Source: Escherichia coli (GTDB taxonomy: Bacteria; Pseudomonadota; Gammaproteobacteria; Enterobacterales; Enterobacteriaceae). From it: a stretch of DNA of 64,000 nt. Position numbers: made by a program. Within the stretch, counting starts at the first letter, position 1. Each line of letters starts with the position of its first letter. This document shows, piece by piece, positions 15,901 to 18,900 of this stretch. Where the stretch lies: the NCBI RefSeq assembly GCF_030013205.1, contig NZ_CP122648.1, one strand, 5' to 3'.

Positions 15901-18900
15901 TGCGGAAAAAGGAAGCGTAAATAAGAACAATCAAAAGTACGACGGCAATGGGTTGATTGACAAGGGTATTTTTTAAGCTATGAATCAGCGCCATTTATCA
16001 CAGAATAGACTTTTACTCTGAATAAATGGGAGGGTGACTTGCCTCAATATAATCCAGACTATAACATGCCTTATAGTCTTCGGAACATCATCGCGCGCTG
16101 GCGATGATTAATAGCTAATTGAGTAAGGCCAGGATGTCAAACACGCCAATCGAGCTTAAAGGCAGTAGCTTCACTTTATCTGTGGTTCATCTGCATGAGG
16201 CAGAACCTAAGGTTATCCATCAGGCGCTGGAAGACAAAATCGCTCAGGCCCCCGCATTTTTAAAACATGCCCCCGTTGTACTCAACGTCAGTGCACTGGA
16301 AGACCCGGTAAACTGGTCAGCGATGCATAAGGCGGTTTCGGCAACCGGTTTGCGGGTTATTGGCGTAAGTGGCTGCAAAGATGCGCAACTTAAAGCCGAA
16401 ATTGAAAAAATGGGGCTGCCTATCCTGACGGAAGGAAAGGAAAAAGCGCCGCGTCCAGCTCCCGCACCGCAGGCTCCAGCGCAAAATACAACGCCGGTCA
16501 CAAAAACGCGTTTAATAGATACCCCGGTGCGTTCCGGTCAGCGTATTTATGCTCCACAATGTGATCTGATTGTTACAAGCCACGTTAGCGCTGGGGCCGA
16601 ATTGATTGCCGATGGTAACATTCATGTCTATGGCATGATGCGCGGTCGTGCGCTGGCAGGGGCAAGTGGTGACCGGGAAACGCAAATATTTTGCACGAAC
16701 CTGATGGCGGAACTGGTGTCCATCGCAGGTGAATACTGGCTGAGTGATCAAATCCCAGCAGAATTTTATGGCAAAGCGGCGCGACTGCAGTTAGTCGAAA
16801 ACGCTTTGACCGTTCAACCGTTAAATTGATCCCTTTTTAACAAGGAATTTCTATGGCACGCATTATTGTTGTTACTTCGGGCAAAGGGGGTGTTGGTAAG
16901 ACAACCTCCAGCGCGGCCATCGCCACTGGTTTGGCCCAGAAGGGAAAGAAAACTGTCGTGATAGATTTTGATATCGGCCTGCGTAATCTCGACCTGATTA
17001 TGGGTTGTGAACGTCGGGTCGTTTACGATTTCGTCAACGTCATTCAGGGCGATGCAACGCTAAATCAGGCGTTAATTAAAGATAAGCGTACTGAAAATCT
17101 CTATATTCTTCCGGCATCGCAAACTCGCGATAAAGATGCCCTCACCCGTGAAGGGGTCGCCAAAGTTCTTGATGATCTGAAAGCGATGGACTTTGAATTT
17201 ATTGTTTGCGACTCCCCGGCAGGGATTGAGACCGGTGCGCTAATGGCACTCTATTTTGCAGACGAAGCCATTATTACCACCAACCCGGAAGTCTCCTCAG
17301 TACGCGACTCTGACCGTATTTTAGGTATTCTGGCGTCGAAATCACGCCGCGCAGAAAATGGCGAAGAGCCTATTAAAGAGCACCTGCTGTTAACGCGCTA
17401 TAACCCAGGCCGCGTAAGCAGAGGTGACATGCTGAGCATGGAAGATGTGCTGGAGATCCTGCGCATCAAACTCGTCGGTGTGATCCCTGAGGATCAATCA
17501 GTATTGCGCGCCTCTAACCAGGGTGAACCGGTCATTCTCGACATTAACGCCGATGCGGGTAAAGCCTACGCAGATACCGTAGAACGTCTGTTGGGAGAAG
17601 AACGTCCTTTCCGCTTCATTGAAGAAGAGAAGAAAGGCTTCCTCAAACGCTTGTTCGGAGGATAAGTTATGGCATTACTCGATTTCTTTCTCTCGCGGAA
17701 GAAAAACACGGCCAACATTGCAAAAGAACGGCTGCAGATTATTGTTGCTGAACGCCGTCGCAGCGATGCAGAACCGCATTATCTGCCGCAGTTGCGTAAA
17801 GATATTCTTGAGGTCATTTGTAAATACGTACAAATTGATCCTGAGATGGTAACCGTACAGCTTGAGCAAAAAGATGGCGATATTTCTATTCTTGAGCTGA
17901 ACGTGACCTTGCCGGAAGCAGAAGAGCTGAAATAGGCCCGCTGTAAAAGCGCATTTCTCTTCAAGGCAGAGTCATCTCTGCCTTGCGTTTTTCATCCCCC
18001 TCATCCACGTTTGATAAGAGCGGCGAGTATTCTTGCTGATGCTACTCATTGCTTCCCCCCTTTACACCTTAATGCCGTTCCCCCACACAGAACAAATTGT
18101 TTATACTTGGCTGAGTAAATAACCTTATTGTTAGTATGGGTATACTGGGAGATGATAACCCCGCAATTTCATTATTCATTGTTCTCCCATAGGATGAGGT
18201 TTCCCGCCGTAACTGGCGGGCTTTTTTTGCCGCAGAATTTTCCCTTTTAACACCCTGTAAACGAAAACTGCGCCGAAGCGCAGTTTAATCGTTGATGGTC
18301 AGAACGACCAGTTCGCACCAGCCACCGCGTTCCATGGGGATTCCACACCGGCACCATGGCTATACCCCACCCCGAGATGCCCGCTTAACGAACTGCTGAA
18401 TGAGGCTTTAATACCTGCCTGATATATTCCACGTCTGCCCGACAAATCATTGACAAAATTACCGTCATTATTCACTTTCACCCGGTTATCATCGACAAAT
18501 TCTTTGCGCACAGCCGCCTTCAGCCACGGCTCAACTTCCATGCCGTTCCCCAGACGCATGTTGTAACTCAGCGTTGCGCCCAGTTCACGATATATACTGC
18601 GGGTATCGACTGATTTCGATTCCATGCCATTGGATAAATGATATTCGGGGTTATCAGCGGTGAACCCCGTTAACGATGCATACGGCGTCAGGTTCCAGTT
18701 ACCATCGGTAAATCGCATCCCGGTTTCAATGTGCCCCCCCAGCCCGTTGCTATGATAACTGCCGTTGGCGGCTCCACCGCTGCTCATTTTACCGGCTACG
18801 TTACTTTCAAAGCGGTTCAGCTTCACGATACCGTCCAGATAGAAACCACTTTCATGTTCCCAGCTGGCATAGCCCCCCAGAGAATAACTGCCCACACTGC

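Follow-up and report, generated by a model that had tools for sequence, protein, structure and literature searches.

Downstream of the cell-division genes minC, minD and minE, the Escherichia coli chromosome carries an intergenic region that separates the operon from a convergent gene for a YpjA/EhaD-type autotransporter. We analysed this region in a window of 64,000 nucleotides taken from one E. coli chromosome (NCBI RefSeq assembly GCF_030013205.1, contig NZ_CP122648.1); unless stated otherwise, positions are those of the window and minCDE lies on the + strand. The intergenic region after minE is 100% identical to that of strain ETEC1748. An initial annotation had drawn attention to a strong + strand intrinsic terminator with a run of seven T about 210 bp past the minE terminator, and had proposed that the interval could encode a small RNA (sRNA) or a small protein. 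Here, we report that this orphan terminator probably represents the 3' end of an unannotated gene for an Hfq-dependent, base-pairing sRNA that lies on the minE strand and appears to be restricted to Escherichia.

A consensus scan detected the + strand hairpin CCCGCC-GTAACT-GGCGGG at 18203-18220, followed by a C and by T7 at 18222-18228, with a predicted energy of -12.3 kcal/mol. The hairpin starts 211 nt past the T-run of the minE terminator, which ends at 17992, so that both the strength and the spacing claimed in the initial annotation were confirmed. We then applied a strict definition of a terminator (perfectly paired stem of 6 bp or more, 5 or more of them G:C, a loop of 3-8, and 6 or more T behind the stem). 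This returned 4 distinct sites in the whole window, compared to a mean of 0.05 in 100 dinucleotide shuffles; another of the four directly follows the open reading frame (ORF) at 9181-9717. The other "terminators" of the consensus scan (some 25) were false calls from a GGGTTCGGATTT repeat in the autotransporter gene (19290-19440). As had been stated at the outset, the stretch from minE to the hairpin is free of annotated + strand genes in ETEC1748, a K-12-like strain and MG1655. Furthermore, searches of about 5,400 E. coli RefSeq genomes revealed no annotated gene under the match among the matches listed. Hfq-dependent sRNAs end in Rho-independent terminators whose 3' U-tails, of roughly 6 or more, bind the proximal face of Hfq; the hairpin and its U7 fit this description, and the orphan terminator is presumed to be an Hfq-binding 3' module. 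It varies in sequence: B2 strains carry G18216A, which creates one stem mismatch, plus U8, and the version in E. albertii has a 5-bp stem and U8.

To delimit the element, we compared it across genomes. The whole intergenic region was found in 5,411 of 5,426 complete E. coli genomes, mostly sharing 90-95% identity with the window. A segment of 93 nt around the terminator reached at least 95% identity in all but 12 records and occurred in single copy; the element as such was present, likewise in single copy, in 5,315 of the 5,426 genomes (98%). Of 5,316 E. coli records, 4,494 (85%) matched positions 18163-18215 exactly, and the other 822 showed a one-base difference. An upstream control of 53 nt (18098-18150) was identical in 20 records only and below 95% in 4,555. 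In the alignment with E. albertii, all 57 of 57 positions of 18163-18219 were identical between intergenic flanks of 56-62% identity; elsewhere, identity to this species amounted to 93.5% for minD, 91% for minE and 81% for the 3' end of the autotransporter gene. The conservation runs from G18163, 40 nt before the hairpin, into the terminator, while the base of the hairpin and the tail vary. Among 44 unique sequences from genomes and gut metagenomes, polymorphic sites made up 21-31% of the flanks and 12% of the part of the element outside the search pattern. Given that this set is biased by the search pattern, we relied on the E. albertii alignment and the equal-length queries instead. Judged from these comparisons, the conservation appears to be the footprint of a discrete RNA and not of a stray hairpin.

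Published transcript data are consistent with this interpretation. In a re-analysis of the Hfq RIL-seq (RNA interaction by ligation and sequencing) data of Melamed 2016, Bar et al. 2021 (PMC8175672, Suppl. Table 1) list an RNA named "minE.ycgI.IGR". In stationary phase, 137 chimeric fragments with 5 unique partners were recorded for it; the SIC was 0.8, the U-tract length 7 and the sRNA score 0.276. The latter exceeds the cutoff of 0.1 chosen by the authors as well as the scores of Spf (0.228) and DicF (0.119) in the same sheet. In exponential phase, the table gives 12 such fragments with 1 partner, again a U-tract of 7, and a score of 0.028 (PMC8175672). Since SIC equals S-1/k, S is 1.0, so that the RNA occupied the second position in every chimera, as is typical of sRNAs. 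According to the table legend, the first gene of a name is "the upstream gene", and fliC.fliA, sulA.ompA and ybiJ.ybiC follow the direction of transcription (PMC8175672); such strand-aware naming puts "minE.ycgI.IGR" on the minE strand. On this strand, the orphan terminator contributes the sole U7 within the intergenic region, as the minE terminator has U5. The listed RNA thus appears to correspond to the element at 18163-18228, and given that assignment, the published data show association with Hfq in vivo with the RNA as the 3' chimera partner. The candidate was neither discussed nor probed in northern blots nor named in Bar et al. 2021 (PMC8175672), and a literature search for the name "minE.ycgI" and for the sequence string of the element found no further paper among those searched. 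The locus is unannotated in MG1655, although K-12 serves as the reference for sRNA biology, and was previously flagged only in a supplementary table, without follow-up.

The RNA would extend from about 18163 to 18228 (~66 nt), or measure up to ~77 nt if it started near 18153 (Table 1). Its predicted fold consists of a weak stem (18165-18173/18193-18201, nt 3-11/31-39), the terminator (nt 41-58) and U7. The loop enclosed by the weak stem shows zero differences between E. coli and E. albertii and is our candidate for the seed. It contains UUCUCCC, complementary to the Shine-Dalgarno sequence GGGAGAA, and CAU, complementary to AUG, which suggests that the RNA may repress translation initiation. 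A stem GGGAGA...UCUCCC (18147-18152/18183-18188) seen in a longer fold was rejected, as its 5' arm is not conserved in E. albertii. In the mechanism that we propose, the AU-rich 5' part would fold weakly at most and expose AUUCAUUGUUCUCCCAUAG, and the G:C terminator hairpin with its U7 tail would be bound by Hfq. With the 3' end gripped by Hfq, the exposed region would base-pair, chiefly in stationary phase, with a few mRNAs from other loci at the sites where ribosomes bind, and such pairing would alter translation or stability of these targets.

The common E. coli variant of 18163-18215 is C18188A, which occurs in about 15% of genomes and is of the sequence type 131 (ST131) kind. Both strains examined for it (WP3 and JJ2434, the latter an ST131 strain) also lack one nucleotide of the CCCC run at 18159-18162. 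The site of this deletion adjoins the predicted start of the RNA, and C18188A itself lies in the predicted seed loop. The predicted fold of the C18188A allele was more stable (-18.3 vs -16.2 kcal/mol). C18188A (C26A in the RNA) could act as a natural seed variant in tests of targets.

Two candidate promoters precede the element. P-a would place the transcription start at G18163, the boundary of the conservation, and its -10 hexamer reads AATGAT in E. albertii. P-b has the better hexamer in this strain, which is not conserved (TATCCT in B2 strains, CATTCT in E. albertii). From -52 to -7 relative to 18163, the sequence comprises conserved blocks and aligns to E. albertii without a single indel, unlike the remainder of the intergenic region, which is rich in indels. 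One of these blocks (18111-18128) may be a promoter-proximal or regulator-binding element. A conserved upstream block that continues without indels up to the RNA fits an activator-dependent promoter, and the stationary-phase preference in the RIL-seq data fits conditional expression. Inspection of the upstream block by eye for a PhoP box, IHF and Lrp sites and sigma-28, -32 and -54 promoters gave none that was convincing or conserved, and none is claimed.

Table 1 Features of the minE-autotransporter region (window coordinates; MG1655 coordinates where indicated)
Feature	Position	Strand	Description
minC	16119-16829	+	from ORF listing
minD	16853-17665	+	from ORF listing
minE	17669-17935	+	from ORF listing
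minE-autotransporter intergenic region	17936-18298		363 nt
minE (minCDE operon) intrinsic terminator	17962-17992	+	hairpin 17962-17985, 10-bp stem, 4-nt loop, U5
C-rich, G-poor tract	17993-18095 (MG1655 about 1224064-1224220, -)	+	poly-C run of variable length
Antisense 36-aa ORF (MNNEIAG...)	18069-18179	-	considered, rejected as gene
Upstream block	18111-18128	+	CTGAGTAAATAACCTTAT; 17/18 identical in E. albertii, nearly invariant in E. coli
Candidate promoter P-a	18128-18156	+	-35 TTGTTA 18128-18133, 17-nt spacer, -10 GATGAT 18151-18156; +1 G18163
Candidate promoter P-b	18141-18146 (-10)	+	-10 TATACT; +1 near 18153, RNA then up to ~77 nt
Candidate sRNA	18163-18228 (MG1655 complement(1223978..1224043))	+	~66 nt, GCAAUUUCAUUAUUCAUUGUUCUCCCAUAGGAUGAGGUUUCCCGCCGUAACUGGCGGGCUUUUUUU; from conservation, RIL-seq and U7
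Predicted unpaired loop	18174-18192	+	19 nt, AUUCAUUGUUCUCCCAUAG; proposed seed
Orphan intrinsic terminator	18203-18228	+	stem 18203-18208/18215-18220, perfect 6 bp, all G:C; loop GUAACU; C; U7
Autotransporter terminator	18262-18285	-	hairpin AAACUGCGC-UUCG-GCGCAGUUU, predicted -13.7 kcal/mol; context, outside candidate sRNA
YpjA/EhaD-type autotransporter gene, convergent	18299-21703/21862	-	annotated YpjA/EhaD-like

Published maps of transcript ends also cover the stretch between minE and the element. The minE terminator has a predicted energy of -17.0 kcal/mol, and a Term-seq 3' end at MG1655 1224224/5(-) falls on its hairpin (Adams 2021, PMC7815308, supp. file 1). It is followed by a C-rich tract that shows strain indels of 3-8 nt and is likely a Rho utilization (rut) region, which would serve Rho-dependent termination of read-through from the minE terminator. 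A Rho termination region peaks at MG1655 1224064(-), about window position 18142, with a Rho score of 24.9 (Adams 2021, PMC7815308, supp. file 2); this is 21 nt upstream of the conserved block. Without bicyclomycin (BCM), 230 reads were counted upstream and 18 downstream of 1224064(-), and with BCM 293 and 571 (PMC7815308), corresponding to ~30-fold more coverage downstream upon BCM addition. With BCM, the downstream count thus exceeds the upstream count (571 vs 293), which read-through alone does not explain. Read-through from minCDE would seem to be halted first at the minE terminator and next by Rho just upstream of the element. Being stopped twice before the element favours an independent promoter, either weak or conditionally activated.

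Several observations weigh against an sRNA gene at this site. The initial annotation had named a mapped 3' end at the orphan terminator and a covariance-model search for known sRNAs as checks, and both came back negative: the curated Term-seq 3' ends from LB OD 0.4, LB OD 2.0 and M63 (PMC7815308) include none at MG1655 12239xx, with the end at the minE terminator present, and an Rfam cmscan of 17600-18600 at E-values up to 10 gave no family match. Among overlapping Rfam matches, anti-hemB scored best, but its 12.9 bits fell well short of the gathering score (49.5), and it covered the terminator alone. DirectRNA-seq counted just the 18 reads mentioned above downstream of the Rho site without BCM, so any RNA here is scarce in exponential phase. 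The RIL-seq entry was matched to the element by its strand-aware name and its U-tract, not by read coordinates. Moreover, the consensus scan reports no promoter at the element, the best candidate (P-a) fitting 8 of 12 consensus positions and staying under the scan threshold; the Cappable-seq lists, which may be incomplete, have no entry near the site. The predicted fold is no more stable than that of shuffled sequences (z = -1.5), and the sequence, being invariant, offers no covariation. Finally, a duplex scan of the window identified no convincing target and none in a translation-initiation region. The best non-self duplexes were antisense to umuC or inside coding sequences, the start of the autotransporter gene was unremarkable, and the self-antisense site was found.

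An alternative is a mere back-up terminator or insulator for minCDE, a hairpin that stops polymerases having escaped both the minE terminator and Rho before they transcribe the convergent autotransporter gene in antisense and that yields no functional RNA. Its strand and its position as the second terminator after minE, with the next gene convergent, agree with such a role; an abundant Term-seq 3' end is not expected when few polymerases arrive, and the 30-fold rise with BCM shows that there is read-through pressure. However, a back-up terminator requires a hairpin and a T-run only, yet it is the 40 nt upstream that are invariant in E. albertii while the hairpin base and tail vary, and in B2 strains the stem even carries a mismatch. 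An RNA that is always second in chimeras and has five partners is also unexpected for a passive fragment. We therefore regard this explanation as unlikely. Another possibility is that the same sRNA arises by processing, with a read-through transcript of minCDE being cut, e.g., by RNase E at AA↓UUU near 18166, in the manner of CpxQ and SdhX, two sRNAs derived from 3' untranslated regions (3'UTRs). The RNase E consensus is RN↓WUU, and the 5' margin of the conserved block holds a motif of this type; no good promoter was predicted, and the RNA is on the minE strand. Still, transcripts from minE would have to pass two termination sites, namely the intrinsic terminator, where Term-seq places a strong 3' end, and the Rho region (24.9); coverage downstream is very low without BCM, and the indel-free conserved blocks at -52 to -7 fit a promoter. 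Overall, processing seems quite improbable to us.

The functional unit could also lie on the opposite strand. Read as its reverse complement, the block gives GGGAGAACA-ATG-AAT-AAT-GAA, that is, a Shine-Dalgarno sequence and the start of a - strand ORF. The block would then be the 5'UTR, Shine-Dalgarno sequence (GGGAGA) and first five codons of a gene for a 36-aa small protein, or part of a pair of small ORF and antisense sRNA comparable to type I toxin-antitoxin loci. The ORF has 36 codons in most E. coli and 39 in E. albertii, where its frame is preserved, and a 61-aa form with a GTG start (18069-18253, -), antisense to the terminator, is annotated as hypothetical protein in many GenBank records, older ones of uropathogenic E. 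coli (UPEC) among them: c1620 (CFT073), UTI89_C1358, ECP_1215 (strain 536) and ECABU_c14370. It is also the "conserved gene of unknown function" of a filamentation screen (PMC6206680), in which fragments over C1358 were enriched, possibly by linkage to minC according to the authors. The sequence variation, however, bears no coding signature. Polymorphic sites are distributed 9:11:10 over codon positions 1, 2 and 3, without the excess at third positions that purifying selection on a protein would leave, nearly all changes are non-synonymous, and the 44 unique DNA sequences encode 27 distinct proteins with stops after 15, 36, 39, 44, 49 or 69 aa. In WP3 and JJ2434, the ORF is frameshifted to 15 aa, an allele shared by about 15% of genomes, and conservation ends at codon 6. 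RefSeq has dropped the 61-aa ORF, and the ribosome-profiling supplement on translated small ORFs of Stringer 2021 has no entry at MG1655 122402x and no MNNEIAG. No - strand promoter is evident, which leaves the ORF to be reached only via read-through of the autotransporter terminator. A type I toxin was rejected as well, as the ORF is not conserved, lacks a transmembrane-length hydrophobic stretch of the sort found in such toxins and belongs to a single-copy locus, whereas type I loci often occur in several copies. Consequently, we consider a functional unit on the - strand very improbable indeed, and c1620/UTI89_C1358 probably represents a recurrent mis-annotation. On the + strand, ORFs of 35, 29 and 40 aa in the interval were rejected because they cross strain indels of 3, 5 and 8 nt, including lengths not divisible by three, or, in the case of the 40-aa ORF, run through the terminator. 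Of the two products suggested by the initial annotation, the sRNA is thus supported by the perfectly conserved block and the RIL-seq RNA with U7, and the small protein was not substantiated on either strand.

To assess the distribution of the candidate sRNA, we searched for relatives of MinE in one genome per species. Among the 80 enterobacterial loci obtained, blastn and nhmmer found the element in E. albertii alone and downstream of minE in none of the other genera, including Salmonella, Citrobacter, Klebsiella and Enterobacter. A contig of Escherichia sp. (L010) shows a match to the beginning of the intergenic region and stops short of the element. No phage copies were found, and "plasmid" copies were rejected, as they turned out to be mislabelled chromosomes or large chromosomal fragments, with none in true plasmids. 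Element and autotransporter gene are jointly missing in E. coli FEX669 and SCPM-O-B-8794, in Escherichia sp. E1V33 and in E. whittamii. In these four (L007, L009, L011, L013; compared over window 17993-22060), the ymgJ/ymgI region directly follows minE. Between minE and ymgJ/ymgI, the element and the autotransporter gene behave like a single insertion/deletion unit. Small ymg genes, which the initial annotation had mentioned for this general neighbourhood of K-12, are not in the interval: ymgJ/ymgI lie beyond the autotransporter gene, and ymgK, ymgL and ymgM are found at iraM/ycgX and dadX/cvrA.

In K-12, the autotransporter gene is reduced to a 344-nt remnant, the pseudogene ycgI, and the element is retained though the adhesin gene has decayed. 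In metagenome contig L148 (ERZ894220...), a deletion starts directly behind the U-tract and reaches into the sequence for the autotransporter beta-domain (~18475); aligned to 18229-18475, it takes the autotransporter terminator and leaves the element exactly intact. By sequence comparison, the RNA would be restricted to Escherichia and tied to the adhesin island. Tentatively, it could be an Escherichia-specific, Hfq-dependent sRNA that is gained and lost as a unit with the YpjA/EhaD-type adhesin gene and kept after decay of the adhesin, as in K-12 ycgI, although we regard this linked-unit scenario as somewhat doubtful. If true, it would mean that the sRNA was recruited into the core stationary-phase regulatory network. 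In this scenario, the total invariance of the sequence might come from a double constraint, one imposed by the sRNA and one by a start region on the opposite strand.

The candidate sRNA resembles known systems to different degrees. MicA, RybB and CyaR are short Hfq-dependent base-pairing sRNAs of enterobacteria, and akin to them, the element would give an RNA of ~65-80 nt whose accessible 5' part is rich in A and U and is followed by one G:C terminator hairpin and a tail of 6 or more U; its exposed region likewise has an anti-Shine-Dalgarno-like CUCC. In contrast to these sRNAs, it is without Rfam similarity, occurs in E. coli and E. albertii only and is apparently much less abundant. With CpxQ and SdhX, it shares the position downstream of an operon on the same strand and a terminator with U-tract for Hfq. 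However, the terminator of the operon is not shared, as minE has its own 211 nt upstream with the Rho region between. symE/SymR is a type I toxin-antitoxin or cis-antisense pair, and here too the RNA is perfectly antisense to the Shine-Dalgarno sequence and start codon of a small ORF on the opposite strand; unlike in that pair, the ORF lacks both conservation and hydrophobicity and is disrupted in about 15% of genomes, the locus exists in one copy, and there is no sign of a - strand transcript. The RIL-seq candidates ybiJ.ybiC.IGR, allR/AllZ and aceK/AceK-int of Bar et al. 2021 come from the same table and share with it many chimeras, second position and a U-tract of at least 7. In distinction from these, the element is genuinely intergenic, with a separate terminator ahead of it, instead of being located within a gene or sharing the terminator of an mRNA.

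Turning to the neighbourhood, the terminator hairpins at this locus are replaced, rather than conserved, between strains and species. In metagenome contig L120 (E. coli), another hairpin, GCCCACAGATGTGGGC, replaces the UUCG-loop terminator of the autotransporter gene at 18262-18285, and minE of E. albertii ends in a hairpin of different sequence at the same place (L008 3268-3340 vs window 17936-17992). The autotransporter gene encodes about 60 Asn-Pro dipeptides (PNPNPN...; 19230-19450, -) in DNA repeats of the GGGTTCGGATTT type, the length of which is likely strain-variable. In the filamentation-fragment screen, the enrichment around minCDE reaches over the intergenic region and ycgI (window 16119-18640; UTI89 1,297,038-1,299,321; PMC6206680), and its authors were undecided between a function and mere linkage to minC.

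No principle of sRNA biology would be altered even if the sRNA gene at 18163-18228 were confirmed. Confirmation would, however, correct the "hypothetical protein" c1620/UTI89_C1358 and would add to E. coli a near-universal sRNA (98% of genomes) that E. albertii has as well and whose five candidate targets are already contained in existing RIL-seq tables and are thus cheap to test. It would also mean that transcription between minCDE and the adhesin gene ends through an intrinsic terminator, Rho and a separate sRNA gene.

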